Source: a virus (lineage: Duplodnaviria; Caudoviricetes). Taken from it: a DNA stretch of 64,000 bases. The stretch lies in IMG/VR virus record IMGVR_UViG_3300008267_000012. One strand, 5' to 3'. The notes under the pieces were generated by a model. The model saw only the letters and a program-made list of their open reading frames with translations. It made no database searches and had not been told where the DNA came from. Made by a program: the position numbers and the translations under genes. Of the stretch, positions 4,695 to 63,957 are shown piece after piece (position 1 is the stretch's first letter; every line of letters starts with the position of its first letter).

Positions 4695-4961
4695 TTAAAC
4701 ATTTTGATAACCTGCTGCTCTTTGTTTTTCAGCAAGCATCTTTTGTTGTTTTTCAAAAAGAATTGTAATTAACTTCTTACGAAGATAAACAGGTATTAAA
4801 TACATTATATCATAGTAAGAATAATTATTCTCAACAAGAAAATTAACTTCTTGTGCTATGAGTTCTTCATATTTACTTTCTTGGATAAAAAAAGTCCAAA
4901 CCGAAGGTAATTGTCTGACGAAAAAAGTCACCTGTGAATTTGCCCTCAAATTCATAATCAT
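4695..4961 (-). CDS. Tail chaperone extension (gp51-like / GT-like frameshift segment)
   Basis: Overlaps the 3' end of the gp26-like gene in the +1 frame across a T7 run (4887-4893). The portion after the run (IQESKYEELIAQEVNFL...YDIMYLIPVYLRKKLI) looks like the short helical tail-chaperone segments that precede tape-measure genes. Confidence 0.6.
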   Translation of the reverse strand: MIMNLRANSQVTFFVRQLPSVWTFFIQESKYEELIAQEVNFLVENNYSYYDIMYLIPVYLRKKLITILFEKQQKMLAEKQRAAGYQNV

Positions 4962-5658: not shown

Positions 5659-5675
5659 AAGAGATAAAAATTTTA

Positions 5676-5696
5676 TATAAATAGTCACTATTTAAT
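5676..5696. promoter_or_regulatory. Back-to-back candidate late promoters (CTATTTATA minus / CTATTTAAT plus)
   Basis: tataaatag-tca-ctatttaat lies between the divergent genes starting at 5658(-) and 5711(+). Confidence 0.65.
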
Positions 5697-5710
5697 AGAA
5701 AAATAGATAC

Positions 5711-35026: not shown

Positions 35027-35035
35027 TATAAATAG
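35027..35035 (-). promoter_or_regulatory. Candidate late promoter CTATTTATA (sheath)
   Basis: Motif 15 nt upstream of the sheath ATG. Confidence 0.65.
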
Positions 35036-47462: not shown

Positions 47463-49220
47463 TTAGATAGTGTCTAACATAAATTCAGCAGGTGAAGCAG
47501 ATGGAAGACCATTTACTAACACTTTACCATAGAACCTGTTGTTAACGACTTTCTTCGCATAACGAGTCATGATACCCATTACAGGTTTGAAGTCAGCAGG
47601 GTTAATGGTTTTTGGCATAAGCATCAACGGAACGTATGGAGCGTAGATGTAACCTGCGTGGAAGATTGAATCTCCTTTGTGTCCAATAAGAACAACACCA
47701 GCAGGAGCATAAGCATCAACATATACTGTGTATCTGTTAGCAACTGAACCAACTTTCTCAATACCTAAAGAGAACTTAGTTTCTTCAGCAGAAGCATCAG
47801 AAGCATGGAAGTACTCAAGGTCATTAAGAACAGCAGCAACTTCAGGAGAACATACAACCCAGTTTGCACCACCACGAAGAGTGAATTTCATGATACGAGC
47901 AGAGATTTGATTAATCTTGGTAATCAACTCTTGGTTGTAATCCTTACGAGTGATTGCAATGTTGTTAGCAGCACTTTGGAATCTTCTATCATAGGCTGAG
48001 TAATCCCAATATTCAACATGTGAAGCAGACTTACGAAGGTCACGAAGGATTTCACGGTCAATTTCACCTGATACAACTTCAGAAAGAAGTGCAGTTAATT
48101 CAGCCTCAACATCAATTGAGTGGAATGCGTTAACATCTTGCTGAAGTTCAGGAGTGAAGGTAGCACCTAACATTCTCTTTTCAACAGAAACGTCAATAAA
48201 GTCAAATGTGAAAGTTACTTGTGGAATTTCAGCATCTTCTTCTAAAGAAGAGTATTCTTTCCATGAAGCAGTAAGGTTAGCAGCAGTAAATGAAACAGTA
48301 GACTTTAAACCTGTACCATTTGCAGCATAAGGATTATTTCCATATACAGTACCACCACTTAAAGGTGAATTAAGAATTAAGTCAACAAGAATGTAATCAG
48401 TTCCTTTAGCAACGATTTCTTTTGCATAAGCTTGCATTGGAAGTCTAAAAGGAATTGGGTCACCAGCTGCAATGATAGTAGAACCATCAGCCTGAGAAGT
48501 AAGTGCAGAAGATGCAGTAACTTTTAAGCTCATTAAAAATGATTCAGTATCAATGATTTGACCTGAAGGACCAGTTAATTTACCTTCGTTAGTAGTGCTA
48601 AATCCTGAGATTCTAATTAAACATCTCTGAGAACCACTTGCACTACCAGGAACACCTGAAATAATTGCAGCAGCAGCAATAGACCTGTTGGTAATTCTAC
48701 CTTTAGTTCTATCAAAAAGACCACCAACATCTTCAAAATCACTTCCTTGATTGTAGAAAGAATCATACAATGAAGTTTGCTGATATTGAGTACCAGCAAC
48801 TTTTACACCGTTAACATAGTTAGCAGCAGCATTGCTATACACACCATCAAATGCTGTGTGAGCAGTAGTACCAACTCTTGTAGAAATTTTAGGGTTAATG
48901 AAATACAAACGACCAATCGGCATGTTCATAGCCTGAACTGATACGATTTCGTTTGCAAGTAATTTTTGGAAAACACGTCTGATGATTGGAAACGCAACTG
49001 TTTCAAATGAACCTGAAGATGTAGCATCAGTTGATTCATTGATTAAGTAAGACGCTTGGTTCTCATACAATTGAGCAATGTTTTCTGCCATGTGACCTTC
49101 AAGGCCATCAAGCAAGCCGAACTGATTCCACTTTTCGGTAATCAATTCACGCTGTTCTCTAAGTTGTCTGTATTCTTGACCAACTTTTCCAGAGTTAAGG
49201 ATTTCGGTAATTCCGTACAT
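47463..49220 (-). CDS. gp23: Major capsid protein, T4 gp23-like
   Basis: KW...GLL, YENQ..YLINE|S, FPIIRRVF..LLANEIVSVQ.M..P.G, ELQQD.NAFHS.DVEAEL..LLSE...EIDREI, GYIYAPYVPL, MTRY. Confidence 0.95.
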   Translation of the reverse strand: MYGITEILNSGKVGQEYRQLREQRELITEKWNQFGLLDGLEGHMAENIAQLYENQASYLINESTDATSSGSFETVAFPIIRRVFQKLLANEIVSVQAMNMPIGRLYFINPKISTRVGTTAHTAFDGVYSNAAANYVNGVKVAGTQYQQTSLYDSFYNQGSDFEDVGGLFDRTKGRITNRSIAAAAIISGVPGSASGSQRCLIRISGFSTTNEGKLTGPSGQIIDTESFLMSLKVTASSALTSQADGSTIIAAGDPIPFRLPMQAYAKEIVAKGTDYILVDLILNSPLSGGTVYGNNPYAANGTGLKSTVSFTAANLTASWKEYSSLEEDAEIPQVTFTFDFIDVSVEKRMLGATFTPELQQDVNAFHSIDVEAELTALLSEVVSGEIDREILRDLRKSASHVEYWDYSAYDRRFQSAANNIAITRKDYNQELITKINQISARIMKFTLRGGANWVVCSPEVAAVLNDLEYFHASDASAEETKFSLGIEKVGSVANRYTVYVDAYAPAGVVLIGHKGDSIFHAGYIYAPYVPLMLMPKTINPADFKPVMGIMTRYAKKVVNNRFYGKVLVNGLPSASPAEFMLDTI

Positions 49221-49245
49221 AATTTTTTAATGTTTTTTAATTTAA

Positions 49246-49254
49246 TTTAAATAG
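49246..49254 (-). promoter_or_regulatory. Candidate late promoter CTATTTAAA (capsid)
   Basis: Motif 25 nt upstream of the MCP ATG. Confidence 0.6.
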
Positions 49255-49272
49255 TAAGATTTTTTCTGTTTT

Positions 49273-51285
49273 TTATTTTTTCTTACCAAAATTATAGTTA
49301 AGTAATTGTTTAAACCTATTAGATTCATCACTTTCATTGATTAAATCCTTTTCTTTGACAAGTGCATTGTCAGTTCTATGAATTTTACCAACTTTATTTT
49401 GTACTGATTCATTCAACATTGAACCATCTTTAACTGTTTGCCCTTTTGCAAACTCATTTGTTAGTGAAATATAGGTCTCTTTAATTTGTTCTTTTGTTTG
49501 TGCATTTGTAAAGCGATGAATAATTTGTAATTTTTCATTCTCTCTAAGAGGATGTTCAAGTAAAAACTTGTTTACAAATCCTGCTTTCAATGCACTAATT
49601 GTTACATCATAGACTTTATTCTCTAATGATTTAACTTTATTTGTAAAACCTTCATTTAAGGCTTTATTTTCTGCTTTAAGTTTTTTAACTTGCTCTTGTA
49701 AAGATTCAAATTCTTCATTTTCCATATCTTCTTCTGAAACAAGAGTAGGTTTTGAGCGTCTGTCAGGTCTTCCTTGAGCAGATTCATCAGCACCCATGTT
49801 TCTTGCTGATTTTTGGGTGCGACTATTAATAGCACTACTTTCTTCTAATTCATCTTCTTCTTTCATTGAATGTAACATTTCTTCAATTTCAGCTTCAGTT
49901 AAATTAGAATAATCTTCTTCCATTGGATAATCTTCTCTAGGGTCAACATCAATTTTCATTCCATCTTTATTTTTATTCATAAAAGTCATTGATTCACCAT
50001 CACCTTCTTCTTGAAGCATTTCATTCATTTCTTCAAGTTCTTCCATTGTCATTTCTTCAAACATTTCTTCAAGTTCAGATACAGATTTTTTTGGTTGCAT
50101 TCTATCCATACCACTTACTTCTTCAACATCGTGCATTGTTTCTTCAGCACCCATTTCAGCAAGCATTTCATTGATTTGCTCATCGGTTAATTCCATTTCA
50201 TTCATGTTCCAATTTTCATCATGCATTTCAACTTCATACATAATATCTTCATCTTGTGAGCCAAACATTTCTTCTTCTGAAGATGGATAATTTTTGATTA
50301 CAGTATCACGACCCATTTTTTCATAAGAATAACGACTACCATCAGGAGCATTTCTTACAGAAGGTTTTTCAGAATCCATAGAAGGATTACCTCCACGTCT
50401 ATATGAAATTTCATGACTCATTGGAGTTTCTTCATATTCTTCATCATATAAATCTTCATCCATCATTGAATGAAAACCTTCTTCATATGTATCATCTTCT
50501 TCCATATATTCATTTTCTTTAATGATGAAAGAATCATTATCACCCATATTATAATATGCTTCAACTAATTTATTAAAGCTTACATCTCTTAAATCTTTTA
50601 AAACTTGTTTTTTTGTATTTCTCATTTTAGTATTATTTCTTTTAAAATTTTCATTTATTTTTTGAAAGCTTTCTTCTTCTTCCCCTTCTTCCTCATCACT
50701 TGGTTCAGCTAAGACTTTATCATCAACATTGACATCAGAAAATTCATCATCATTTGATTCTTCATCACCAAATTCAATATCTTCTTCATCATCTGAATCA
50801 TCCATTTCTTCTTCATCAGAATCCATTTCTTCATCATCTGAATCATCCATTTCTTCTTCATCATCTGAATCTGCTTGAACTAATTTAAAACCATGTTCTT
50901 CTGCTGCTTTTCTTAAATCATCTAAAGACATTTCTTCTTCAGAATCTTCCATATTTTCTTCATCATCTGATTCTTCATCAGAGTCAACACCTTCTAAATC
51001 ATTAAGTTCACTTAAAATTTCATTAAGTGAAACTGATTCCTCAATAGATTCTTCCTTTTTTTCTTCTCCCTCTTTTTCTTTGGATTCTTCTTCTTTTTCT
51101 TTAGACTCTTCTACTTCTTCAACATCTTCACCTGCAATTATCTTTTCAAATAATGCAGCAGATTTTTTTTCAAGTAAATCAGCACTTTCATTAATCAGTT
51201 GTTCTTTGGCAAGTTCCAAAGATTCATTCTTGATATTTTCTAGTTCTTGCAAACTATCTTGTAATAAAGACTTTTTATTATTCAT
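49273..51285 (-). CDS. Prohead core scaffold protein, gp22-like
   Basis: 670 aa, extremely acidic with a coiled-coil C-terminus, located between the protease and MCP genes; many (L/I)xE sites. Confidence 0.75.
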   Translation of the reverse strand: MNNKKSLLQDSLQELENIKNESLELAKEQLINESADLLEKKSAALFEKIIAGEDVEEVEESKEKEEESKEKEGEEKKEESIEESVSLNEILSELNDLEGVDSDEESDDEENMEDSEEEMSLDDLRKAAEEHGFKLVQADSDDEEEMDDSDDEEMDSDEEEMDDSDDEEDIEFGDEESNDDEFSDVNVDDKVLAEPSDEEEGEEEESFQKINENFKRNNTKMRNTKKQVLKDLRDVSFNKLVEAYYNMGDNDSFIIKENEYMEEDDTYEEGFHSMMDEDLYDEEYEETPMSHEISYRRGGNPSMDSEKPSVRNAPDGSRYSYEKMGRDTVIKNYPSSEEEMFGSQDEDIMYEVEMHDENWNMNEMELTDEQINEMLAEMGAEETMHDVEEVSGMDRMQPKKSVSELEEMFEEMTMEELEEMNEMLQEEGDGESMTFMNKNKDGMKIDVDPREDYPMEEDYSNLTEAEIEEMLHSMKEEDELEESSAINSRTQKSARNMGADESAQGRPDRRSKPTLVSEEDMENEEFESLQEQVKKLKAENKALNEGFTNKVKSLENKVYDVTISALKAGFVNKFLLEHPLRENEKLQIIHRFTNAQTKEQIKETYISLTNEFAKGQTVKDGSMLNESVQNKVGKIHRTDNALVKEKDLINESDESNRFKQLLNYNFGKKK
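50781..50871 (-). repeat. Degenerate tandem repeat encoding (D)SDDEEEM units in the scaffold
   Basis: Repeated tcatctgaatcatccatttcttc units. Confidence 0.75.
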
Positions 51286-51320
51286 TTTATTTTATTATCT
51301 ATATTTAATTAGTAAAAAAA

Positions 51321-52022
51321 TTAATTCCCAATTATTTTTCTTATAGAATCATCATATTTTTTTACATTATTGTTTTGTATTACTACTGATTCTTGCAATG
51401 ATTGGTCTTTTGTTTCCAAAAATAGATAAGCGTTAGGTGTAGATGGTGTAGCAACTAAGTCAAAACAAATAAGTTCAAAATCATCTTGAACAATATTTTT
51501 TCCACCTACTTTTTTAACACTACCTAATCCTCTTGAAGAGATACCAAGTTTAAGATTTCTTTGTAAGTATAATGCAATTTTATCGCCAATACACCAACCA
51601 TGACCATCTCTCATGAATGAATCGCTAACGATAATATCAAGAGTTCCATATACTGCGTTACCTGACCACCATGTTTTGGCAATTCTGTGTGAAATGTTTT
51701 GTAAAGAAATTGTAACTGATTCAGGATGGTCTGCTTCATTAAGTGCTGCATAATCATTAATAAGTTTTTGATATTCGTCTATTTGCTTTGCTAATATTTC
51801 TCTTGGATAAACTCTTCCGTTACGATTTAAAACATCAGCTTCCTGAAGTTTACAATCAATATAGAAATGACCATCAAAATCATTTCTTCTAAATTTTGAA
51901 TTTAAATCTTCAAATATTTTTTTATTATTTGTGGTTAAATCATTTGAAATAAGACCTGCATCAGTTTCTACTAATAAACCATATCCTTCTTGTCCTTCTT
52001 TTAGTAGTTGTACTTCTTTCAT
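51321..52022 (-). CDS. gp21: Prohead core protease, gp21-like
   Basis: LQEADVLNRNGRVYP, ALNEADHP, LGISSRGLGS, DDFELICFDLV.TPST. Confidence 0.93.
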   Translation of the reverse strand: MKEVQLLKEGQEGYGLLVETDAGLISNDLTTNNKKIFEDLNSKFRRNDFDGHFYIDCKLQEADVLNRNGRVYPREILAKQIDEYQKLINDYAALNEADHPESVTISLQNISHRIAKTWWSGNAVYGTLDIIVSDSFMRDGHGWCIGDKIALYLQRNLKLGISSRGLGSVKKVGGKNIVQDDFELICFDLVATPSTPNAYLFLETKDQSLQESVVIQNNNVKKYDDSIRKIIGN

Positions 52023-52786
52023 TATTTGTTTGAGTTTAGATTTTTAATCTCAAAAAGTTTGGACAAATTATCAATTGCACTTTCAGATTCATATTCTAGT
52101 GTATCAATAAAATCAAATGTTTCTGTTAATACTTCTGAACTGATATTATCTTTTTCATTCAAAAGAAAATTCTTTGTTGATTTCTTATAACTTTCAAATA
52201 CAGTTTTTTTCTTTTTTTCATCACCTTTAATAAAGGTTGAGATAACTTCCACTTCATCAGGCTGAAGATTTGAAAATCTTTCTTCTAATTTCTTTTTAGC
52301 TAGATGAAAAATATGACTAACTTTAAACCCTTTATCAGTTTTTTCTAATTTTGCATCTTCTTTTTTAGTTAATGATTCAATTAAGAAATTTACTGATTCG
52401 TGTAATTTATTAACATTAGTTATTTTTTTATAAACGCTTTCATTAATAACATTTTCAATGTTCTGATTAAGTGTAATTTTATCTTCAGATAATTCTATTT
52501 CTTTTAAATCAAACTTTTGAAGTTTTTTATTTTCTTTTAGTAATTCGGTTTTGTCAATTTTTGATAAAGCTGAGATATTAGCCTCAATGAATCTTAATGA
52601 TTCATTATATTCAAGATTATGTTTTTTTAGATTCTCATAAATCGTATATTCTAACATTAGAATTGGAGATGATTTAATTGTTTTTAAAAACTCTTCATAT
52701 AGTTTTTTATACTTGCTAGTATTTTCAATTAAATCTTGAGAATATGCTTTATTTAATTTTGACTTGACATTACCAAAATTTACCAT
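52022..52786 (-). CDS. Hypothetical head-module protein
   Basis: 254-aa helical ORF between portal and protease; CTATTTATA motif at 52803-52811. Confidence 0.55.
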   Translation of the reverse strand: MVNFGNVKSKLNKAYSQDLIENTSKYKKLYEEFLKTIKSSPILMLEYTIYENLKKHNLEYNESLRFIEANISALSKIDKTELLKENKKLQKFDLKEIELSEDKITLNQNIENVINESVYKKITNVNKLHESVNFLIESLTKKEDAKLEKTDKGFKVSHIFHLAKKKLEERFSNLQPDEVEVISTFIKGDEKKKKTVFESYKKSTKNFLLNEKDNISSEVLTETFDFIDTLEYESESAIDNLSKLFEIKNLNSNK

Positions 52787-52820
52787 TTTTTTTAGTGTTT
52801 AATATAAATAGTATAAATTA

Positions 52821-54635
52821 TTATTCTTTTATTAATCTATCTAATTCCGCAGTCTTTTTAAATATTTCTTCACTTAAAAAACCAGCACCACCTGTAGCAC
52901 CACCACCACCTGCTTCAGCACCACCCATTGGAGGTGTACCACCGCCCATATCAGCACCGCCACCCATAGGAGGTGCGCCACCTCCCATATCAGCACCACC
53001 TAATCCACCACCAAGACTATTATCTAATTGTTGTTGTTCTGTATTAGCTTGTTGCCCTTGTGCATCGGCAACACTAAATCCTGCATTTTTATACTTAATC
53101 ATTTTATCCATTAATCCTGATGATTTAAGTAACATACCAGAACTCTTAACTTCTTCACCAATCTTAGATTCAAGCATTTGTTCTTGAAGGTCATTAATAA
53201 TATCTTCTTCAGACATATGGAAAAATTTCTTTTTACCCATAAGTTCTGACATTGGTTTTAATCCTGTATTTTGATTTGGTGTTGTAGCAGCTTGATATAC
53301 TTCTAATTTTGTTTTCCAAATTTCAAGTTGTAATAAGTCAGATGCTGTTGATGGGTTATTAAGAGATAATTTAAAATCATCAATATATGATTCATAATCA
53401 CCACCAAGCAATCCCAAATGTATAATAGCAATCTTATTAAGTTCACCAAGTAATGCTTGTTGAATACGATTTACTTTTCTTGCAAAACGAATATCAAGCA
53501 TTGATAAATTTTTACCTCCACCTTCACCTGTTGAATCAGATGAAAAACCAAGCAATGTTTTATGAATACCTAAACCTGTAAATAAATTATCACGAAGATA
53601 ATTAATATCAGATATTGCCTCAAGATTAGATGCACCTGGAAGTGTATCAACAAAATTACCCGATGTATTACCTCTGTCAGCAATGAAGATATCTTCATCC
53701 ATTGAAGCAATATTATATTTAAAGTTAATATCACCTGTCTTAGGGTCAACTAATTTCTTTTTCTTTACATTGTTAGCGAATGCTTCAAGAATTTGTGGAA
53801 CATCTTCAGGTGGAACATTACCAACAGGAACTTTATAAATTCTTCTTTCTGCTGCTCTTGTGATACGATACACCATCATAGCATCTTCCATCATAAAAAG
53901 TTGCTTATATGTTCTTCTTACTTTTTCATATACACTACAACCATATGGAAGTCTATCACCTGTACCCAATAATCTAAAGTGTGCAACTTGATAATCTAAA
54001 TATTCTTCTTCACCACCAGAATTTGGGTCTTTGTATTTAAAGAATGCTCTAAATCTATTTTTAGCATCATACTTTTCATTTCTTTCAACAAATTGTGATG
54101 CAAGTTGTCTAAAATCCACAATACCATTTTCTTTTGATAATTCTAAAAAAATAAAATTATCCCCATATTGGCACATATTTCTACACCAATAAAATATATT
54201 TGTATTGATATCCATAACTTTATAAAAGAATCTTTCAAGTTCTTTTTTAACTTTATCAGATGAACAATAAATATTTAAAATTTGTCCTGTATCACTTTTA
54301 GTTGTTGTTGCTTCTTCAGATAATAAATCTAATGCTGCACCTAAAATTGGATACCCATCCATTGATAAATAATCATAGTAGAGCATCATTCTACTAGATT
54401 CATACATCAATTTACGTTGGTCGTTACCCTTATCAATTTTGGTGCTTTGAGTTCTATAAAACTTTATCGCACCATCTTCCACAGCTTTTTTTGTAGCTTC
54501 TTCTTGAGAAGCAGCAGTAATAAATTCTTTTTGAACAGGTGCTTCATATCTACCTTGTGTGCTATCCAAAGCATCAGTTGCTCTTCTAAAGAAAGTATTA
54601 ATGTTTGAAAATAAGCCTTTATTATCTTCTGCCAT
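52821..54635 (-). CDS. gp20: Portal protein, gp20-like
   Basis: EDAM.VYRITRA.ERRIYKVPVGN.P, MDEDIFI, VDTLPGA.NL..I.DI.Y, DIRFAR; Gly/Met/Pro-rich tail. Confidence 0.95.
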   Translation of the reverse strand: MAEDNKGLFSNINTFFRRATDALDSTQGRYEAPVQKEFITAASQEEATKKAVEDGAIKFYRTQSTKIDKGNDQRKLMYESSRMMLYYDYLSMDGYPILGAALDLLSEEATTTKSDTGQILNIYCSSDKVKKELERFFYKVMDINTNIFYWCRNMCQYGDNFIFLELSKENGIVDFRQLASQFVERNEKYDAKNRFRAFFKYKDPNSGGEEEYLDYQVAHFRLLGTGDRLPYGCSVYEKVRRTYKQLFMMEDAMMVYRITRAAERRIYKVPVGNVPPEDVPQILEAFANNVKKKKLVDPKTGDINFKYNIASMDEDIFIADRGNTSGNFVDTLPGASNLEAISDINYLRDNLFTGLGIHKTLLGFSSDSTGEGGGKNLSMLDIRFARKVNRIQQALLGELNKIAIIHLGLLGGDYESYIDDFKLSLNNPSTASDLLQLEIWKTKLEVYQAATTPNQNTGLKPMSELMGKKKFFHMSEEDIINDLQEQMLESKIGEEVKSSGMLLKSSGLMDKMIKYKNAGFSVADAQGQQANTEQQQLDNSLGGGLGGADMGGGAPPMGGGADMGGGTPPMGGAEAGGGGATGGAGFLSEEIFKKTAELDRLIKE

Positions 54636-54675: not shown

Positions 54676-56454
54676 TTATCTGACAAATATGTAAGGATTA
54701 TTATTAATCTTTGGTGTTTGACGTTCAGGTACATCTATACTATTACCATTTGTATACCAATCCTTTCCTTTAAGCATGTCATTCTTTCTTTCATAGTTTG
54801 CATCTTGACCATCTTGACTTAACATTTTCTTTTGGAATTCAGTACTTGCATCAGTAAATTCATCACCTTTTCTTACTATTGCTGATTTAGCATAATTCAA
54901 ATAAATATTGAATTCATTCCCAATTGTTTTAGAAAACATATATACAGCAAATAACATACCTGTTGCAATCAACAAGTCATCGTGTGCTGAACGCATGTGG
55001 TCATATCTATTTGTATTATCATTAAATACAAATGTCTTGATTTCACTAAGTAATCTAATTGAGTGAATTAATGCTTCACCCTCTCTTAATCTTCTTTCAA
55101 ATTCTCTAATAACATAATCACGAATAGCACCACTCTTCATTGTGAAACCTGGCTGTAACTCACCTCTTTGTAAATTCTTTAATTGAATTTTTACATCGTT
55201 TTGTCTTGGTCTATCGTAATGTATTTTTTTATATTTATTATTTACCAAATATCTAATAACTGATATACCCCAACCCCCTGTAACATCTATAATTACATAT
55301 GCATTATTATACTTTTGACCATATTGTAAACATAACTCACCCATTACTTCAAGTGGAACTCTTGATTGATATTCCGCTACTTGAACAAGTAACATGTTTA
55401 CAGCATCATTTTTAAATATTTGAATTGTAGAATAGTCACCATCACCACTACCTTTTGCAACGTCACAAGATAAATAATAATCATATCCAAATATTGGGTC
55501 TTCCCATATCCAAAAATTATTATCATATTCAGTTCTAATTGGTTCTTTACAAGTTTTTTCAATTCTCATAATGGTTTCCTCATCAACAAGGTTACCACCT
55601 GAACCCAAGAATTTATTTTCTAATTCTTGTGCAATTTTTCTTGGGTCATTGTTAAAGGTTTGACACATATCCCTAAACCAAGAAGATGATGGTCTATAAC
55701 CACCAACTCTTAATTGCATATATTTTTCAGGGTCTTTTTCTTCAACAAATTCATCACCTCTAATCCAAATCAAATCTTCATTGTAACGAGGGTCTTCAAA
55801 CCAATTGATTTCAACAACTTTAAAGTTATTCTTACCTGTTCTTGCCCCTTCATAACGAGCATAATATGTTGGGTCAAGACCTCTTGGTGTAGAGTTTAAT
55901 ATAATCTGACCACCTGCTGACATTGTACCTGATGCAGATGACATAAATTCTTCACCTTCTTCAAGGAACGCTGCTTCATCTATAAATAATATATCAGGTG
56001 TAAATCCCCTTAGACCATCGGCAGATGCTGCGAAAGCCTGTAGTGTTGCGCCATTGTTATAAATCTTAATCTCTTTTGTATCTGAATCAGTTGGTATTCT
56101 ACCAAATATTTCTCTTGGTAGATTATTAATAATGGATGCAATCTGATAGAAGATACTTTCCTTTGCAAGTTTTAATTTGTTAGCTGCAACACCAACTTTA
56201 ATATCCTTTCTAAAAACAATTGAATGTGCTAAATAAAGACAAGTCACAGTAGTAATGCCACCCTGACGATATTTTGCAACTAAAACTCTGTTACTTTCTT
56301 TGTATGTTTCTAATACTTGACTTTGTTGTGGCAATAATTGAAAAGAAACATACTGTTGTTTTTTCTTATCCCAAACTTTACAATATTTTCTTGCAAAGTA
56401 CTCTATATCAATAGCGCACTTGGCATACTCCATCATTAACTCATTTTTAGTCAT
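54676..56454 (-). CDS. terL: Terminase large subunit, gp17-like
   Basis: KYRQGGITT (Walker A), LFIDEAAF (Walker B), STPRG, LSCDVAKG.G.GDYS, HDDLL nuclease motifs. Confidence 0.95.
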   Translation of the reverse strand: MTKNELMMEYAKCAIDIEYFARKYCKVWDKKKQQYVSFQLLPQQSQVLETYKESNRVLVAKYRQGGITTVTCLYLAHSIVFRKDIKVGVAANKLKLAKESIFYQIASIINNLPREIFGRIPTDSDTKEIKIYNNGATLQAFAASADGLRGFTPDILFIDEAAFLEEGEEFMSSASGTMSAGGQIILNSTPRGLDPTYYARYEGARTGKNNFKVVEINWFEDPRYNEDLIWIRGDEFVEEKDPEKYMQLRVGGYRPSSSWFRDMCQTFNNDPRKIAQELENKFLGSGGNLVDEETIMRIEKTCKEPIRTEYDNNFWIWEDPIFGYDYYLSCDVAKGSGDGDYSTIQIFKNDAVNMLLVQVAEYQSRVPLEVMGELCLQYGQKYNNAYVIIDVTGGWGISVIRYLVNNKYKKIHYDRPRQNDVKIQLKNLQRGELQPGFTMKSGAIRDYVIREFERRLREGEALIHSIRLLSEIKTFVFNDNTNRYDHMRSAHDDLLIATGMLFAVYMFSKTIGNEFNIYLNYAKSAIVRKGDEFTDASTEFQKKMLSQDGQDANYERKNDMLKGKDWYTNGNSIDVPERQTPKINNNPYIFVR

Positions 56455-56919: not shown

Positions 56920-57330
56920 TTAAGATTTCTTTTCTAAGAATCTAGTAAAGAAATCATCTAATTTCTTAGTGTGTTCATTTAAGTTTTGAAGCGTTGCTTC
57001 TAATTTAGTAATAGCTTCTGTATTTTTTTGAATCATTAACTGAAACTTATCATTATTTTCTTTTTCAGAATCAAACAATTCATCAATTAAATTAGTCATC
57101 TTAGTATCAGAATTTTCTAATATTGCAATCCTTGTTTTAATTTCACTAATATCTTCGGCTATCTTATCAAAACTTGTTTTTTGATTTTTTTTATCTTCTT
57201 CTAAACTATTAATTTTATTTTGTAATACAGGTATTACAAAAACATAAGTTAAAATAGTACCAACTATTGCTGACAATGCAGCAAAAATTATTTGTGTACT
57301 TGGTACTATTTGTAAAAGAATTAAAAACAT
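56920..57330 (-). CDS. Membrane-anchored coiled-coil protein (possible lysis function)
   Basis: N-terminal TM (IIFAALSAIVGTILTYVFVIPVL) followed by a long coiled coil. Confidence 0.45.
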   Translation of the reverse strand: MFLILLQIVPSTQIIFAALSAIVGTILTYVFVIPVLQNKINSLEEDKKNQKTSFDKIAEDISEIKTRIAILENSDTKMTNLIDELFDSEKENNDKFQLMIQKNTEAITKLEATLQNLNEHTKKLDDFFTRFLEKKS

Positions 57331-57331
57331 A

Positions 57332-58480
57332 TTAAACTAATTTTCTTTTAATATTTTCAATTAAAATAGTTCTCTTTCTTTTTTGAATTTCTTGTTGCAA
57401 CTGTTCTTTTAATAATTTTTTAGATTCGGCTTTTAATTGCTTCAAGAAACTTTCATCCAATTTTTCCGTTGATTCTTCTTCAGCAGCAGGTTCTTCAGCA
57501 GGTAATTCTTCAATAGGTGCTTCCTCTTCAGCATCATTAGTACTAATTTCCGAACCTTGCATTTTTTTGTAGAATGATTCAACAACTTTATCACCAACTA
57601 ATTTAAATCCTTCAGGACCAATAGCAGTAATAAGACTATTCATTGCATTTTTAATATCTTTTTCATCAAATTGCTCTTTATCTTGAAGGTCATTAATAGT
57701 TTGACCAAGTTTACCAACAGCTTCTTGGAATTCTTTTTTAGGGTCAGCCTCTTCAGCAGGTGCTTCAGGAGTTGCAGTAGTATCAGCAGCAGGTTCTTCA
57801 ACAGCAGTAGCATCACCTTCAGGAGCAGCAGTAGCATCACCTTCAGGAGCAGCAGTAGCATCGGCAGTAGGAGTAGCACCACCTTCAGGAGCAGCAGTAG
57901 TTTCTGCATCAGGTTCATTCATACCACCTAAAATATCATCTGCTATTTTTGTTGTTGATTCAGCACCTGTTTGAGTTGTATTAACAGGAGCAGCAGGTTC
58001 AGCAGCAGCATCAGCGGTTGCATCAGCAGCAGGTTCAGCAGCAGGTGTTTCTTTTTGTTTATCTAAATCACTTAAAAGTTTAGATTCAGGGTCTTCTTTT
58101 TCTGTATCTTCATCTTTTTCAAGAAGTAGTCTTAATTTGTGTGCATTATTTTGCGCTTCACAAATGAAAGACATTTTATTAGTTGCCTTTTCAAAAGAAT
58201 TAAATTTCTCAATACCAAAAGTAGTATTCAATCCATCCAAGTGTTTAAAATCAGTAGGATTAGTACTTCCCTTTTTAGAAGTATACTTTAAATAATAAGT
58301 TTTATTTTCATGAATAATACCAAAAGTATTACCATCCAAAGTTTTTTGAATCTTTAATAGAGAAGGTTTTAATTCTACCTTTTTATCAGTATCAATAGCT
58401 AACCTTTTAAAGTTTTCAGCAATCTGTTCTTTAGTTGCTTTCTCTCTACTAATTCTACTTGCGTCTGCTCTTTTAATCAT
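57332..58480 (-). CDS. Hypothetical head-associated protein with Ala/Pro/Glu/Thr low-complexity linker
   Basis: 382 aa with a TAAPEGDA-repeat linker and (L/I)xE sites. Confidence 0.55.
   Translation of the reverse strand: MIKRADASRISREKATKEQIAENFKRLAIDTDKKVELKPSLLKIQKTLDGNTFGIIHENKTYYLKYTSKKGSTNPTDFKHLDGLNTTFGIEKFNSFEKATNKMSFICEAQNNAHKLRLLLEKDEDTEKEDPESKLLSDLDKQKETPAAEPAADATADAAAEPAAPVNTTQTGAESTTKIADDILGGMNEPDAETTAAPEGGATPTADATAAPEGDATAAPEGDATAVEEPAADTTATPEAPAEEADPKKEFQEAVGKLGQTINDLQDKEQFDEKDIKNAMNSLITAIGPEGFKLVGDKVVESFYKKMQGSEISTNDAEEEAPIEELPAEEPAAEEESTEKLDESFLKQLKAESKKLLKEQLQQEIQKRKRTILIENIKRKLV
57802..57862 (-). repeat. 24-bp tandem repeat (TAAPEGDA)
   Basis: cagcagtagcatcaccttcaggag x2.5, with a further partial copy near 57880-57900. 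Confidence 0.9.
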
Positions 58481-58510
58481 TTTATTATAAATTTTTATTT
58501 ATTTTATTTA

Positions 58511-59035
58511 TTAATACCTTCTTCTTTTTTTACTTTCATTTAAAGTTTCACCTCTAACACCAGTTTCTCTTAAAGCTTCTAATACAGCTTTTGTTAGTGA
58601 CATTCTACCTAATTTAGGGGCTAAATTTCTAGTAAACACACTAGCTTCTAATCCATCACTTAATTTACCTGATTTAATTAAACCCTTTTCAATTACACTA
58701 AGTAAAGAATCTCTATTACCTCCTGCTGCAAGACCTTTATCAATTAAATCAAATAACCAATCCATTAGTTTACTATTACCACTACCTAAACCACCTTGTG
58801 TATCAACAATTCCTTCTTTTAAACTTTTTATTTTAGAAAGTTTTCCTTTCAACATTTCATTTTCTCTTTGAAGAGACTTCACTTTTTCTTCAAGCATTTT
58901 CTTCTTTGTTTGTTCAAAAATTTGATTAAAATCAACTTCATCTAAATGTTTTTTTGTGTAACCTTCTTTAAAGAGTTCTCTCTTAGCTTGAACGAAATTT
59001 TCAAAAACTAAATTATATAGCTGTTTGTTAGTCAT
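58511..59035 (-). CDS. Hypothetical late protein
   Basis: 174 aa; CTAATTATA at 59049-59057; LKE|G and LNE|S sites. Confidence 0.55.
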   Translation of the reverse strand: MTNKQLYNLVFENFVQAKRELFKEGYTKKHLDEVDFNQIFEQTKKKMLEEKVKSLQRENEMLKGKLSKIKSLKEGIVDTQGGLGSGNSKLMDWLFDLIDKGLAAGGNRDSLLSVIEKGLIKSGKLSDGLEASVFTRNLAPKLGRMSLTKAVLEALRETGVRGETLNESKKRRRY

Positions 59036-59053
59036 AACAATATTTTATTATAA

Positions 59054-60022
59054 TTAGTTAGAATTTATAGAAAATACGTTATTTACTATTTCTTTTTTAT
59101 TATCCTTGATAATATCAAATAGTTTATTATTTCTCAATACTTTAAAAACTAAGTTATTTACTGAAAACTCACCTTCTGTCTGTGTTGCTTCACCACGTTC
59201 TTTCTTAATCTTTTTAAGTACTTTATTATAACTCTCCATCTTCTTTAATGAATCTTCCATCATTGATATCTTATTAAAGATATCTAAATACTTGTTAACT
59301 TTTTGGGTAACTAAATGCCTATCAACTTCAGGTAATTTATACTTTGGTTTCTTAATCCATTTGTTATCAATTATTGAATACATTGCGCTTTTACCCACAG
59401 TCTGTTCATTTATATCTTGAACATATATTTCAACAGGATATGAACCAATCTTTACATCATTTGATACTTCCCATGCTGCTCTCTTTTGTAAAAAATAATT
59501 CATTACAAAATCAACATCATCTGAAACATCTTTATAATCAATAACAATATGTAAATCAATATCAGATGAATCTGTATAATTATAATTTGCTAAACTACCT
59601 GTAAAGATTATATCTTTTAATTTTACCTTTGAATCTAATTCTAAACTATTAAAATAGTATTTACCAAGATTTAAAAGATTTTTTCTGATATTACTTTTTA
59701 AATGATTATTCAACCAAAATTGAGGATTTAAACTTTTATGATATTCAATCTCAACATCTGATTTTAATTTAGATGGGATATTTTCTTCTTCTAATTGTTT
59801 ATAAATTGTTTCTTCCAACTTTGCTTTTTTAAGTTTAGTATAGTATTTTGGATTCTCAGATAAATGGTCCATAGCAATTTCTTTTGCTTGTTTTTTATTA
59901 TCAGTATGTTCCATTTCAGTTTTAATACCCAACTTTAGTTGTGATGTTAAATCCACAATAGAAACTTTATGTTTTTTAGCAATTTTTGGCAATGTTAATT
60001 TGTCTGCTTTACCTCCTTTCAT
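59054..60022 (-). CDS. DUF5661-like domain fused to a Pol-beta-superfamily nucleotidyltransferase
   Basis: N-terminal QLKLGIKTEMEHT...AKEIAMDHLSENPKYYTKL; C-terminal FTGSLANYNY..SSDIDLHI...PVEIYVQD (GS, DxD and a third acidic residue). Confidence 0.75.
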   Translation of the reverse strand: MKGGKADKLTLPKIAKKHKVSIVDLTSQLKLGIKTEMEHTDNKKQAKEIAMDHLSENPKYYTKLKKAKLEETIYKQLEEENIPSKLKSDVEIEYHKSLNPQFWLNNHLKSNIRKNLLNLGKYYFNSLELDSKVKLKDIIFTGSLANYNYTDSSDIDLHIVIDYKDVSDDVDFVMNYFLQKRAAWEVSNDVKIGSYPVEIYVQDINEQTVGKSAMYSIIDNKWIKKPKYKLPEVDRHLVTQKVNKYLDIFNKISMMEDSLKKMESYNKVLKKIKKERGEATQTEGEFSVNNLVFKVLRNNKLFDIIKDNKKEIVNNVFSINSN

Positions 60023-60060
60023 TTGAAAAATCGTATTTTATACATATAACTAGAAAAAAA

Positions 60061-60069
60061 CTATTTATA
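60061..60069 (+). promoter_or_regulatory. Candidate late promoter CTATTTATA
   Basis: 11 nt upstream of the ATG at 60081. Confidence 0.65.
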
Positions 60070-60080
60070 ATAAAAATAAT

Positions 60081-60548
60081 ATGTTTAGATATAATCAAAA
60101 AAATGCAAATAGAGAGGTTGATGAACTTAAAAAATTGTTAGCAATAACAAAAGGTATGAGAACACCTACTAAATCAATCTCTTCATCCTTTTTAAGAGAA
60201 GCTGTTGATATGTTAGGTCAACCAACTGACCCTGCTGCTACACAAGGTACTCAAGATGCACCTGCTGTTGATATGACAACACCAGAAGAAATGGCTGATA
60301 CTGATGCACAAAGTAAATTTGAAAAAGCAACAAATGATTCAAAAGTAACTGAATTATCCGATAAACTTGTTAAAGCTGAAAAATATGAAGGTAAGTTAAA
60401 ATTTACATATGATATTGAAAAAGATAAACCTACAGTTACAATTCCCGATGAACTTGAATTAGATGATGATGCATTTACAACATTACAAAAGGTTAAAGAA
60501 TATTTTAAAATTTGGAAAGACGAGAGCGAAAAAACACCATCTGCATAA
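60081..60548 (+). CDS. Hypothetical late protein
   Basis: 155 aa; FLRE|AV site followed by an Ala/Thr/Pro linker. Confidence 0.55.
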   Translation: MFRYNQKNANREVDELKKLLAITKGMRTPTKSISSSFLREAVDMLGQPTDPAATQGTQDAPAVDMTTPEEMADTDAQSKFEKATNDSKVTELSDKLVKAEKYEGKLKFTYDIEKDKPTVTIPDELELDDDAFTTLQKVKEYFKIWKDESEKTPSA

Positions 60549-60899
60549 ATGAATAATAATATTTTACAAATAGTTTTATTAATTATTGTTACAATAATAC
60601 TATCTGTATTACTTTATTTTGTAAATGATAAAACTGATAAAAATACTGATGATGTTGTAAAGACTTCTCAAGAAGTTGAAAACATTAAAAAAGAAACAAG
60701 TGATTTTAAAATCAGATATCAAATTTTAAAGAAAGTAAATGATTCAATATTTTTACTTATTGATAAACAAAATATTAAAATAATTACATACAATAAAAGA
60801 ATAGCACAATTAGAAAAAAATGAAGAAGATATTAAAAAGATTGTTGGTAGTATTGATGATAGTACCCTTTATAAGTTACTCTCAGAAGTTCCCTACTAA
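60549..60899 (+). CDS. Inner-membrane-anchored coiled-coil protein (i-spanin/Rz-like)
   Basis: N-terminal TM (ILQIVLLIIVTIILSVLLYFV) plus a coiled coil; overlaps the next gene by 80 nt. Confidence 0.45.
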   Translation: MNNNILQIVLLIIVTIILSVLLYFVNDKTDKNTDDVVKTSQEVENIKKETSDFKIRYQILKKVNDSIFLLIDKQNIKIITYNKRIAQLEKNEEDIKKIVGSIDDSTLYKLLSEVPY

Positions 60900-61263
60900 A
60901 ACATTAAAACCTATAACTTTTACAAAAGAAAAGGATAATTATTTATATACTTTTAATACTGACCAAACTAAATTTTTTTATGAAACTAAAATGTTATACG
61001 ACATTTGTAATAAAAAAACTTTATATAAAGATTCCATAATTAATGCTAAAGATAAAGTAATTGAACAAATAACTACCTTAAATAAAGATAATAAAATAGA
61101 ATTAGATACTTGTAATTCATTAGTGATTAGACAATATAATTTAATAAATAAACAAGATAGTCTAATTACTGCTCAACATGACATTATTGATAAAAAGAAT
61201 ATTAAACTATCCTTTCTTGGTGGCACAACTTTAGCAATTATAATAGCTATGTTGCTTCTTTAA
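60820..61263 (+). CDS. Secreted/membrane coiled-coil protein (spanin-partner-like)
   Basis: Signal-peptide-like MKKILKRLLVVLMIVPFISYS|Q, a coiled coil and a C-terminal TM. Confidence 0.4.
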   Translation: MKKILKRLLVVLMIVPFISYSQKFPTKTLKPITFTKEKDNYLYTFNTDQTKFFYETKMLYDICNKKTLYKDSIINAKDKVIEQITTLNKDNKIELDTCNSLVIRQYNLINKQDSLITAQHDIIDKKNIKLSFLGGTTLAIIIAMLLL

Positions 61264-61454
61264 ACAGCATCACCCCAAGTACCTTTCCTATTCCAAAGTA
61301 CTCTAAATAAATTAGATAAAGTTTTTACTGTAACCTTTTTGATTTCATTTTCAGTAAATTTACCTTTAACGACTTTCTCAATTTCTTTTTCAAGAAATGG
61401 TTTAAGTTCTTTTACAATCTCTCTTTTTAAAGATTCTTCCTCTTTTTTAGTCAT
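61260..61454 (-). CDS. Small hypothetical late protein
   Basis: 64 aa; CTAATTATA motif at 61474-61482. Confidence 0.55.
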   Translation of the reverse strand: MTKKEEESLKREIVKELKPFLEKEIEKVVKGKFTENEIKKVTVKTLSNLFRVLWNRKGTWGDAV

Positions 61455-61473
61455 TTAAACTTTATTATTTTAA

Positions 61474-61501
61474 TATAATTAGTTGTTTGTAACTATTTAA
61501 T
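61474..61501. promoter_or_regulatory. Back-to-back candidate late promoters
   Basis: tataattag (61474-61482, read on the minus strand) and ctatttaat (61493-61501). Confidence 0.6.
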
Positions 61502-61512
61502 AAAAACCTTAT

Positions 61513-63957
61513 ATGGAAAATCAGCAAGTACAACCAACAACTGTTGATACTAGAGTTCAAGGTGGTGCAACAAAGAAAACAAAGAAACGAGAATTTAAAA
61601 ATCGTAAAACTTTTTCTTTGAAGGCAATGGAAGCTTTAGTTGACAAAGTTGGTTTTCTTAAAAATAAATATGAAGCATTAGCTATCAATGCTCAAGAAAA
61701 ATTGGGATATCATTATAATGAAATCTTGAATATCTTACTTTTCCATAAATATGTTAAAGGAAATAAAAAATTATTTAACATGTACAAAAAAGTAAAAGAT
61801 GCAATAAATAAAGGTTATGAATTTGAAAAGAAAAAATTAAAAGAAAATACCATGAAAAATAAAAGTAATAAAACTCATTTTGCAATTAATAAAAATACTA
61901 ACAAAATTCTAGAATCTTGGAATTATGAAGGTTATGAACATGATGAGTTAAAAAAATATAAAGATGAATATTTTACAAAAGATGTGAAAAGAAATTATCC
62001 ATTCTTGAATGAAAATGACATTGTAGTTGTTTCAGCTAAAAATTTAGAAAAAAGAGAACTTAATGAAAGTAATAAAAAAGATTGGCAGAAATATAACTAT
62101 TCTCATTTTGCTTTATTAAAAGAAACTAACCATATTCTATATGGTTTTGATTATTCTAATGTAGATTCAGAAGAATTAAAAGAAAATAAAAATCATTATT
62201 TCTTAAATGTTATATCTGAAGAATATGGTAATGAAATATCTCCAAAAGATGTTGTAGTTGTTAAATCTAGTAAACTTGATAAATTAGGTATTAAAGATTA
62301 TTTAAATGAATCTAATTGGGTTGGATTAATCAATGAAGCATATTGTGGAGACAATAAAGAAGAAATGATTGATGAAGTTAGTAGAGATAGAAATTTGATT
62401 AACAGTCTTGTAAATGGAGATATTTATGAATATGAAGTTCCAAGTTGGGCTTTAGGTGCTTTAATTAATGGTGATTATAGTGGATTAAGTGATGAAGATG
62501 AACAAAAAATAAATAACTTTGTTCAAAGCGTTGTATCTGAAGTTGGTAATGCTAATTTCTATGGAGGTGAAGAAGAAGATAGAATAGGTTTTAGTGGATT
62601 TAATGACATTGATAAATTAGGTAGTGAAGTATATAAAGTTTATGTTAGAAAGTCTAATATTGAAGAATCAACTGCAATGAGTAATGCATTCCCTGTTGGT
62701 AATCAACCTACAGGTGGATATCCTGTTGCTAATCCAAAAAAGAAAGGTAAGAAAAGAGGATTTGATTTAAAGAGTGGACAGAATATGTTTGACCCACCTA
62801 GTAATGATTTAGGTGGTTTAGATGATTTTTATAGTAGATGGTCAAACCCTGCATTTAAGAGTAATAAAGGACCTGTAAAAGTTGATAAAGCAGGTCGTGT
62901 TAAAGTTAATACTAAAACACATTATTCAGGTACAAATAAAAGTGTAAAAGGTGTAAATGAAAATTATAATTTAGTTGATTTAGATGCTTTAATGAATGAT
63001 GAGATTGTAGAATACAAAAAGATATCAGCACCTAGTAATGTATTTAAAAGTCCTAAGATTGAATTAATCAGAGAAAATAATAGAGATAGCATTACTGATT
63101 TTATTTTAAAACACCAAGGTCGTGAATTACCTGAAGTATATAATAAAAGACAGTTAGATACATTAGCATTAAAAACTTTAAATGAATATTATAATAGATT
63201 AGTTCAAAGACTTGGTTTACTAGCAGAAGAAAAAAGACCTGATGCATTAGTTAGAATTGATGCTCTTAAAAAACAATCTCAAAAAGATACTAATAACTAC
63301 TATAAAAAAGATGCAAGTAACAAAACCACTACTATGCTTGTTCAAAAAGGTGAAGGAGATGGTTTAGAATATGATAAAGATTCAAGAGAAAGAAAAGATA
63401 TTCCAATGTATAAGTTTCAATCTGACCATCAAAAACAATATCTTGAAAAAGGTCATAGAGGATTAGAAGATTTTGTTCCCGATAATAATCCAAATGGTGA
63501 AGTTGACCCTGTATGGGAAGCAAGAAAGAAAGCATTAATGAGTACACAAGAAGTTGGTGCAAAAGCATATGATTCAGCTAAGAAAAGAATTCAATACAAA
63601 AAAGATAATAAACTTGGTACAGGTAGAAATAGAGCAGTCCTTAATCAGGAGACCTTACCTAAAGTTGATAAAGCAGATGAATTATTAAAAGAAAATACAT
63701 TTACCGTTATAAATGAAGAAAATATCTTAAATCAGATACAATCTTATTACATTGATGACGAAAATAGAAAAAAACCTGTTATATTTGATTCAAACAATAT
63801 CGTTGAAATGCAAAAAATCAATGAAAATAAACTTTCGGGTTGTAAAGAATTAATATATAAAGGTTTAGGTCAAACTTTATCTGAAGACTTTAAAAATAGA
63901 GTTTTAAACAAGAAACTTCTTTACTCACCTGATAGTAAAAAAGTTTTCTTAGTTTAA
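61513..63957 (+). CDS. Large multi-domain late protein with duplicated HFA..K.T..I...Y module (polyvalent-like)
   Basis: 814 aa with two copies of a roughly 70-aa module, a VPSWALGALINGDYSGLSDED domain and many (L/I/V)xE sites. Confidence 0.6.
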   Translation: MENQQVQPTTVDTRVQGGATKKTKKREFKNRKTFSLKAMEALVDKVGFLKNKYEALAINAQEKLGYHYNEILNILLFHKYVKGNKKLFNMYKKVKDAINKGYEFEKKKLKENTMKNKSNKTHFAINKNTNKILESWNYEGYEHDELKKYKDEYFTKDVKRNYPFLNENDIVVVSAKNLEKRELNESNKKDWQKYNYSHFALLKETNHILYGFDYSNVDSEELKENKNHYFLNVISEEYGNEISPKDVVVVKSSKLDKLGIKDYLNESNWVGLINEAYCGDNKEEMIDEVSRDRNLINSLVNGDIYEYEVPSWALGALINGDYSGLSDEDEQKINNFVQSVVSEVGNANFYGGEEEDRIGFSGFNDIDKLGSEVYKVYVRKSNIEESTAMSNAFPVGNQPTGGYPVANPKKKGKKRGFDLKSGQNMFDPPSNDLGGLDDFYSRWSNPAFKSNKGPVKVDKAGRVKVNTKTHYSGTNKSVKGVNENYNLVDLDALMNDEIVEYKKISAPSNVFKSPKIELIRENNRDSITDFILKHQGRELPEVYNKRQLDTLALKTLNEYYNRLVQRLGLLAEEKRPDALVRIDALKKQSQKDTNNYYKKDASNKTTTMLVQKGEGDGLEYDKDSRERKDIPMYKFQSDHQKQYLEKGHRGLEDFVPDNNPNGEVDPVWEARKKALMSTQEVGAKAYDSAKKRIQYKKDNKLGTGRNRAVLNQETLPKVDKADELLKENTFTVINEENILNQIQSYYIDDENRKKPVIFDSNNIVEMQKINENKLSGCKELIYKGLGQTLSEDFKNRVLNKKLLYSPDSKKVFLV

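Follow-up and report, generated by a model that had tools for sequence, protein, structure and literature searches.

A phage that injects ready-made proteins can influence its host before any gene is expressed, and to our knowledge shared N-terminal leaders have so far been the means by which such proteins were sought in uncultured phages. In phage T4, the capsid protein gp23 is cleaved after Glu65, and Glu-to-Asp changes in the T4 capsid-targeting sequence have been shown to block cutting. The T4 internal proteins IPI-III and Alt carry a 10-residue capsid-targeting sequence (PMC9026906), and the head and ejection proteins of phages phiKZ, 201phi2-1 and SPN3US carry propeptides of more than 100 residues with several protease motifs, cut after Glu by a gp21-related protease (PMC5694885, PMC9026906). 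Phage polyvalent proteins have been argued to be often packaged in the capsid (Iyer et al. 2017, PMC5512222). Here we analyze a stretch of 64,000 nucleotides (nt) of a Caudoviricetes virus (IMG/VR record IMGVR_UViG_3300008267_000012), hereafter the window, with a G+C content of 28% and 62 called open reading frames (ORFs), which we name by their positions. A preliminary description had proposed that five ORFs in the interval 57332-63957 (57332, 58511, 59054, 60081 and 61513), together with ORF 3667, share cut sites of the prohead protease, (L/I)-x-E, and form a coherent set of packaged, processed and ejected proteins, including an enzyme and an anti-restriction-like protein. Our analysis points to one strong candidate for a protease-processed head polyprotein, the 814-amino-acid (aa) product of ORF 61513, and not to a uniform cargo cluster.

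For each ORF, we compared the count of [LI].E[SAGNT] with 1,000-200,000 shuffles of the ORF's own residues, which preserve its composition, and did the same for a set of control motifs (the reversed motif, [LI]E, [LI]..E, [LI].D, [LI].K, [VMF].E and [AGS].E, each then followed by S, A, G, N or T). ORF 61513 has 12 sites where 2.7 are expected (z = 5.9), and at least 12 sites arose in 2 of 200,000 shuffles (p ~1e-5). Only three other ORFs in the window exceed a z of 2.5, namely the scaffold-like ORF 49273 (12 sites vs. 3.7 expected, z = 4.7), the prohead-core ORF 52022 (7 vs. 1.8, z = 4.0) and ORF 51321, the gene of the S77 prohead protease, with 5 sites vs. 0.7 expected, among them LKE|G at its residue 9 (the bar marks the cut after Glu). 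Control motifs are at chance in all four. Every tripeptide quoted in the preliminary description is indeed present at the positions we checked in each named ORF, and the enrichment check it had called for, run here with shuffles and control motifs, came out positive for 61513 only: of the six listed ORFs, the signature is real and specific in this one, suggestive in a second and chance-like in the others.

The excess in 61513 might also be a by-product of composition, of helix and linker habits or of repeat ancestry, in a protein that the prohead protease never meets, for instance one that acts in the cytoplasm at a late or middle stage; Lys, Glu and Asn are abundant in 61513, it contains an internal duplication, some of its sites are buried in folds and replication genes adjoin it. 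The shuffles keep composition, though, and the reversed, shifted, Asp, Lys and Val/Met/Phe controls stay at chance. Without the duplicated module, 61513 still has 9 sites vs. 2.3 expected (p = 2e-4), its module-end sites are derived and a distant genome repeats its ranking (both described below), and the only other window proteins above the z of 2.5 are three prohead-core genes. We regard a by-product as rather improbable.

Applying the same test to T4 (locus L016), we obtained z values of 5.9 for gp22, 4.5 for gp68, 4.3 for Inh, 2.9 for gp23, 2.5 for gp21 and 2.0 for gp67, with values of about 0 for sheath, tube, portal, SegD/E, UvsW, UvsY and gp25. The motif fingerprint recovers known gp21 substrates, chiefly the heavily processed ones. 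For genome-wide ranking in relatives we used a 170-kb contig (G001) and a complete 266-kb genome (G005). The 815-aa homologue of 61513 in the former (75% identity) ranks 2nd of 152 ORFs, and six of the top seven ORFs there have a clear context: this homologue, the protease, the scaffold-like protein, the core protein, a leader-tagged protein and the homologue of 58511. In the latter, a distant family member (~39% identity, N-domain only) ranks 3rd of 246 ORFs with a z of 3.9.

The presumed processing enzyme and a reference site are both encoded nearby. The structural module of the window is of a distant T4 type and, besides the genes of Table 1, includes a tail sheath gene. Its major capsid protein (MCP) reads ...ASYLINE|STDATSSGSFETVAFPIIRR at the predicted maturation site, 17 residues before an IIRR that aligns with MVRR of T4 gp23, where the propeptide ends LTE|AEIGG. 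This alignment and the gp23 propeptide end bear out the YLINE|S site, at the gp23 position, that the preliminary description had used as its reference. The interval 57332-63957 is at the edge of the late head/packaging module of an uncultured, distant T4-like giant phage; it also includes the membrane proteins 60549 and 60820, and replication genes lie at its border. As an observation on the MCP itself, ~200 residues between its N-arm and the Gp23-matched core match no family and could represent an inserted domain.

We next consider how the sites of 61513 are arranged along the protein, using an AlphaFold2 model with a mean predicted local distance difference test (pLDDT) score of 68. The sites quoted for this ORF are LKE|N at residues 111, 224 and 727, LNE|S at 185 and 266, INE|A at 275, IEE|S at 385 and IRE|N at 521. 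Those at 111, 204, 266, 275, 385 and 727 lie in linkers with pLDDT < 50 and that at 521 lies at a domain edge, and most disordered linkers of the protein bear a site; their placement at domain boundaries, as the preliminary description had claimed, is upheld for 61513, with an excess there that is specific to the motif. Residues 1-385 hold 9 of the 12 sites (9 vs. 1.6 expected, z = 6.2), a density of 2.3 per 100 aa that equals that of the core genes of the same phage, and the C-terminal 429 residues, which are kept in distant relatives, hold 3 (1.05 expected). In the model, the first of the two ~70-aa modules forms a unit at residues 120-190 and the second, with weaker confidence, at 197-258.

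Three features of the junctions argue, at the level of sequence comparison, for selection on the sites themselves. First, four relatives differ widely in the linker before residue 386, yet each of them retains IEE|S, LDE|S, LEE|S or IDE|S there. Second, the DUF6926-like module, which has IDE|V (288) and IEE|S (385) on its flanks, occurs in two of the relatives but not in L002 or L003, and the alignment of the relatives places its insertion point exactly between MIDE| and the pre-386 site. Third, 63 of 64 distant copies of the ~70-aa module end in GINPxDxxNW and have no [LI].E there, and LNE|S stands in both 61513 copies; as the copies elsewhere end in GINPxDxxNW, the LNE|S sites were gained in the 61513 lineage and are not a property of the fold. 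A module-end site intrinsic to the module fold was considered and rejected (1 of 64 distant copies). The ~70-aa module (THFA...W.Y...EL...YF...GINPxDxxNW) is, in its own right, a widespread unnamed phage domain lacking a Pfam model, which we found in 113 proteins, alone and in many architectures.

Searches for known relatives of these parts returned little. Beyond DUF6926, Pfam was empty for the other segments of 61513 even at E values up to 1, PHROGs gave no family, and neither tblastn of the 814-aa protein nor megablast of the region found a match in 50,697 deposited phage genomes. Fold searches are poorly served by the 814-residue model: Foldseek (PDB, AFDB clusters) and VIA wide returned chance-level rows, except for the DUF6926-like module, whose fold matches are small phage proteins only, and the best viral fold match of the model (BFVD) is a protein named PolyVal ADP-ribosyltransferase (E = 8e-5). 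Sequence-profile searches of PDB gave nothing useful, a search of ESM Atlas with module 1 gave no usable match, Pfam detected no peptidase domain (MPTase) in 59054 or 61513, and our literature search returned no mention of DUF5661 or DUF6926.

An exhaustive profile search identified 239 relatives of 61513, of which all named ones are called 'hypothetical'. The N-domain occurs in 39 proteins (N-terminally in 30 of the 39), and it appears, as does the module, in a wide range of architectures. After the variable region, 32 of the 39 N-domain proteins show a conserved junction, found with a regular expression that fixes the Glu, with L, I or V at P3 in 22 of the 32; in its fuller form it reads hydrophobic-x-E|(S/T)TT..S.G.(F/Y)..P, often followed by FPIMRG(A/V)F. 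This junction resembles those of capsid proteins. MCP residues 60-85 align by BLASTP with relative P0004 at 54% identity over 26 residues, a profile of 27 distant junctions run against 61 window ORFs has MCP residues 59-74 as its top match (E = 3.5e-4; the next is at 0.25), and the T4 gp24 junction reads LRE|STTTNSNSIG. The site excess extends to the family as well: among 79 family-related proteins of at least 300 aa, [LI].E[SAGNT] occurs 339 times vs. 137 expected (2.5x), with controls at 1.0-1.4x. An S77 protease is encoded in the relatives, and also in four of five distant family-bearing viral records, including both complete genomes.

With regard to expression, we found the motif aACTATTTATAWTAAA 18-34 nt before the start codons of sheath, MCP, core, baseplate and other structural genes, and its core CTATTTAWA occurs 16 times vs. 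7 expected (copies lie, e.g., at 35027-35035, 49246-49254, 52803-52811 and 60061-60069). The copy before 61513, ACTATTTAATAAA, is similar in type to that of the portal gene. ORF 60081 has a perfect late-type motif upstream (19.5 bits), and 58511 has a late-like motif with one mismatch at 59044-59058 that could, from its position, drive 58511, 57332, 56920, 56470 and terL. These late-type motifs fit late transcription, predicted from the sequence, but are not proof of it. Separately, back-to-back copies of the motif stand in the divergent intergenic regions 8790/8798, 20897/20905 and 39922/39930.

Table 1. Positions in the window of ORF 61513 and its parts, the head and packaging genes, and the other ORFs of the interval
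Feature	Position	Strand	Remarks
814-aa modular precursor, strongest candidate prohead-protease substrate	61513..63957	+	motif excess
Late-promoter-like motif ACTATTTAATAAA	61492..61504	+	~20 nt 5' of the 61513 ATG; kept in four relatives
N-terminal helical domain, aa 30-105	61600..61827	+	pLDDT > 90; basic tail before, LKE|N (residue 111) after
Two ~70-aa module copies, aa 118-188 and 196-269	61864..62319	+	each ends LNE|S; copies aligned
DUF6926-like module, aa 293-381	62389..62655	+	Pfam PF21977, E 6.5e-8
Family-conserved junction IEE|STAMS, type hydrophobic-x-E|(S/T)TT..G..F	62659..62682	+	regular expression, profile
Predicted mature C-terminal part, aa 386-814	62668..63954	+	disordered stretch, helical region aa 518-700, alpha/beta domain aa 735-814
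gp23-type MCP	47463-49220	-	585 aa; Pfam Gp23 match spans residues 300-571 only
Predicted MCP maturation site INE|S, residues 60-63	49032..49043	-	LINE|S at residue 62
670-aa scaffold-like protein, gp22 position, 20.6% Glu	49273..51285	-	positive control
T4 gp21-type prohead protease (Peptidase_S77)	51321..52022	-	Pfam PF03420, E 3e-23
254-aa prohead-core protein between portal and protease	52022..52786	-	positive control
Portal	52821-54635		identified by search
TerL	54676-56454		best named match Flavobacterium phage immuto, 29% identity; then gp17 of T4-like phages
382-aa acidic protein	57332..58480	-	second-best candidate
174-aa coiled-coil protein, basic KKRRRY tail	58511..59035	-	signal non-specific
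DUF5661 + Pol-beta-type nucleotidyltransferase	59054..60022	-	minimal polyvalent-type protein
155-aa acidic protein	60081..60548	+	single conserved SFL(R/K)E| site

The product of 61513 is, in our view, somewhat more probably than not a late polyprotein that is targeted to the head and cut by the S77 protease. Behind this reading stand features computed here: the enzyme gene, the specific motif excess, the derived or conserved junction sites, the replication in other genomes and the promoter-like motif. Targeting by the N-domain, the cleavage itself, what becomes of the fragments and any effect in the host are inferences. The basic tail and the conserved N-terminal helical domain would bring the protein into the prohead core, where the S77 (gp21-type) protease would, as the motif statistics suggest, cut after Glu at (L/I)xE sites in the linkers. 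These cuts would separate the N-domain, the two ~70-aa modules and the DUF6926 module, and a final cut at the capsid-protein-like junction IEE|ST would free the 429-residue C-terminal product. The small modules, which vary, resemble passengers set between the cut sites of a long propeptide.

Several observations weigh against this reading. Six of the 12 sites fall in linkers with pLDDT < 50 vs. ~4 expected, such that placement alone is not significant, and the sites at 134, 167 and 771 lie within confidently folded domains. Fold searches found no domain of known function in 61513. The protein's own junction, IEE|STAMSNAFPVG, is diverged and was missed by the family profile, so its link to the MCP rests on the series of alignments through closer relatives, and a cut site directly after the N-domain across the family had to be rejected ([LI].E in 16 of 39 proteins vs. 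a null of 50%). The upstream motif scores 7.9 bits vs. 15-20 bits for most structural genes, and the gene itself is transcribed divergently from the head operon and in relatives adjoins GMP-reductase-like and DNA-polymerase genes. No shared T4-style leader (~10-20 aa, ending in (L/I)xE) was found on 61513 or the other focal ORFs. Finally, as regards cargo, multi-site enrichment in T4 marks the core proteins and Inh, which are degraded, and not the injected internal proteins; on this result, a multi-site excess indicates degraded core proteins as much as delivered cargo.

This last point bears directly on whether anything is delivered. The 814-aa protein might serve in assembly only, as the gp22 and gp68 core proteins or Inh do, with its pieces leaving the head or staying inert. 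Such a role would agree with the T4 enrichment in gp22, gp68 and Inh, with the core-like site density of residues 1-385, and with the explanation of extra propeptide sites as a means to clear fragments from the capsid (PMC5694885). On the other hand, the N-terminal modules are well folded (pLDDT > 90) and also occur as stand-alone small phage proteins, they are gained and lost between relatives, which is not expected of a mere spacer, and the C-terminal 429 residues are site-poor and conserved; we hold a purely assembly role to be unlikely. A bolder form of the polyprotein reading strikes us as doubtful too. In it, a conserved head protein of a lineage of T4-like giant phages would act as a carrier, with exchangeable modules set between its prohead-targeting N-domain and the capsid-like junction; the prohead protease would release them at (L/I)xE sites in the capsid as separate mini-proteins, to be ejected with the DNA. 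The modules would include some shared with polyvalent proteins, and this polyprotein route for swappable cargo would be distinct from the one leader per gene of T4.

The other ORFs of the proposed cluster gave a mixed picture. ORF 57332 has 5 sites vs. 2.3 expected (z = 1.9) with no rise in the controls; the tripeptides quoted for it are LLE|K at 121 and LDE|S at 343. Its model comprises a small N-domain, a Pro/Ala/Glu-rich disordered linker of ~120 residues, a helical domain and a confident basic C-terminal helix, and matches only uncharacterised phage proteins and generic long helices in BFVD and VIA wide. Conservation extends to three of its positions, IAE|N at 22, LDE|S at 343 and the N-domain boundary site at 121, which reads LNE|A or LNE|S in relatives and LQE|A in a 29%-identical homologue, and the protein may be a second, lightly processed head protein. 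For ORF 58511 (LKE|G at 74, LNE|S at 167; 3 sites vs. 0.9, z = 2.4), the controls [LI].D, [VMF].E and [LI].K[SAGNT] are raised equally, so that its excess reflects a general sequence habit, and its sites are lost in L003. ORF 60081 (LRE|A at 40) has 1 site vs. 0.5 expected (z = 0.75), a single site that ends a conserved 40-residue N-part, and ORF 3667 (LNE|A at 11), located in the baseplate region, has 2 vs. 0.8 (z = 1.5). The sites of 58511, 60081 and 3667 are not distinguishable from chance. Neither Pfam nor PHROGs assigned a family to 57332, 58511 or 60081.

ORF 59054, with LEE|T at 71 and LEE|E at 79, has 2 sites vs. 1.0 expected (z = 1.0), and is a fusion of DUF5661 (E = 9e-15) with a Pol-beta nucleotidyltransferase, in line with the enzyme that the preliminary description had counted among these proteins. 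NTP_transf_2 (PF01909) scores 21.7 bits vs. a cut-off of 21, phrog_36119 matches with E = 9e-41, and the protein shows GSLANY...DIDLH, the GS...DxD signature of Pol-beta nucleotidyltransferases. Elsewhere, DUF5661 is fused to Kinase-PolyVal, ART-PolyVal, LPD1, Zeta_toxin, Eco57I methylase, DUF4314 and, once, the Thoeris inhibitor Tad3, which identifies it as a polyvalent-protein domain. The protein varies in size from 322 aa up, with homologues of 435, 618, 901 and 1317 aa (L001 5899-8604, L002 7197-8504 and L003 6662-8518, all on the minus strand; the 1317-aa form is in a further contig), and modules of 110-300 residues are inserted in some of them at one fixed junction, between KLEE| and [LI]xE|EN. 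In one form, a CCA-adding enzyme and an HD domain are fused before DUF5661. Packaging of 59054 is suggested, by analogy, from the company of the DUF5661 domain only.

The preliminary description's larger proposal, that all six ORFs are packaged, processed and ejected as a counter-defence kit, has some of these observations on its side. The four smaller focal ORFs pooled have 11 sites vs. 4.6 expected, which is suggestive and not decisive, and the sites of 57332 are conserved. DUF5661 is a polyvalent domain, once joined to Tad3, long DUF5661 proteins, taken together, are mildly and specifically enriched in sites (1.49x expected), the variable modules of the 59054 homologues sit between LEE| and [LI]xE| junctions, and phage polyvalent proteins are argued to be packaged (PMC5512222). 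Set against this, 59054, 60081 and 3667 are at chance, the 58511 excess is common to its controls with its sites lost in one relative, and the 22 top-scoring G001 ORFs, which go down to a z of 1.6, do not include the 901-aa homologue of 59054. Moreover, 3667 belongs to the baseplate region, genes with a T4-style shared leader lie elsewhere, and our searches detected no anti-restriction domain: in Pfam, DUF6926 is the sole match of 61513, with no ArdA, ArdC or DarA domain, and none is listed by the fold searches, for which the 814-residue model is a weak query. The anti-restriction-like protein thus finds no support in any tool, the coherent cargo cluster falls away, and of the shared signature there remain the specific excess of 61513 and a modest one in 57332; a joint kit appears very unlikely. 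A DarA C-terminal domain in the duplicated module, suggested earlier, was also considered, and none of the tools lends it support.

The genes with a leader are found in the G001 contig, where four small unrelated genes at 48638-51389 (L009-L010) share a ~21-residue leader, MKKVRITESQLRGLVKKMIKE, of the form MKKV(R/L)(I/V)TESQL...M(I/L)(K/M)E, which one of them repeats internally. From its sequence it looks like this lineage's T4-type capsid-targeting and protease leader. No ITESQL-type leader was found anywhere in the window, and by position the leader-tagged genes would lie beyond its end.

Some further ORFs drew our attention in the same searches. Within the window, ORF 60549 (an N-terminal membrane helix and a coiled coil) overlaps 60820 by 80 nt in another frame, the latter having a signal-like N-terminus and a C-terminal membrane helix, a layout reminiscent of spanin pairs; the two together span 60549-61263 on the plus strand. 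The minus-strand ORF at 56920-57330, with a membrane helix and a coiled coil, has a weak match to an Rz-like spanin PHROG (E = 4e-4). In the G001 contig, the top site excess belongs to a 467-aa ORF at 4399-5802 (locus L007, minus strand; 8 vs. 1.5, z = 5.6). Its product, acidic in the middle and basic in its C-terminal domain, carries FINE|T at residue 19 and is a further candidate for a head-processed protein. In G005, a 265-aa ORF at 66620-67417 (locus L041, minus strand) has 12 sites vs. 1.4 expected and the most extreme z of all (9.9), and lies far from the protease gene of that genome (216 kb).

Together, these results correct the earlier picture, with most of the proposed cluster being ordinary or beyond testing by the motif signature. 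They also provide a site-excess fingerprint, checked with controls and validated in T4, that picks out head-processed proteins from sequence alone, and indicate a second architecture beside the leader-tagged genes: a modular polyprotein with cut sites at its module junctions and a capsid-like maturation junction. If confirmed, the fingerprint would allow a sequence-based listing of the processed head proteome of T4-like giant phages, and the polyprotein would offer a natural scaffold for loading foreign domains into capsids.

Compared with known systems, 61513 shares with the gp21-processed T4 proteins gp22, gp67, gp68 and Inh an S77-type protease in the same head module and a late-type promoter context, and its (L/I)xE excess is similar in strength to those of gp22, gp68 and Inh. 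It differs from them in its 814-aa length with folded, exchangeable modules and a conserved, site-poor C-terminal half, in having no sequence similarity to them and in the location of its gene outside the portal-to-MCP block. With IPI-III and Alt of T4 it would share the proposed logic of entry into the prohead core, a protease cut after Glu that takes off the targeting part and, possibly, ejection together with the DNA; in contrast to these, the focal ORFs have no short shared leader, the putative targeting part of 61513 is a folded domain of ~75 residues and several predicted cuts fall within the protein. It is the leader-tagged genes, and not those of 57332-63957, that come closest to the T4 ip genes.

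The long multi-site propeptides of the giant phages phiKZ, 201phi2-1 and SPN3US are, by analogy, a direct precedent for 61513, although their motif is (S/A/G)-x-E instead of (L/I)-x-E, the proteins are unrelated and the predicted propeptide of 61513 carries independently folding passenger modules. The likeness to the polyvalent proteins of Iyer et al. 2017 lies in a multi-domain build beside packaging genes and in the co-occurrence of the DUF5661 of 59054 with their domains, and two head proteins of phage P1, DarA and DdrB, are proteolytically processed. By comparison, 59054 has only two domains, 61513 and 59054 lack the MPTase that is common but not universal there, and processing here would be by the head protease at (L/I)xE. 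Lastly, the family junction resembles the maturation junctions of gp23-type and gp24-type capsid proteins, with LINE|STDATSSGSFE in the MCP of the window and the LRE|ST junction of T4 gp24; this similarity spans ~26 residues only, and the rest of the 61513 model has no HK97-like fold.

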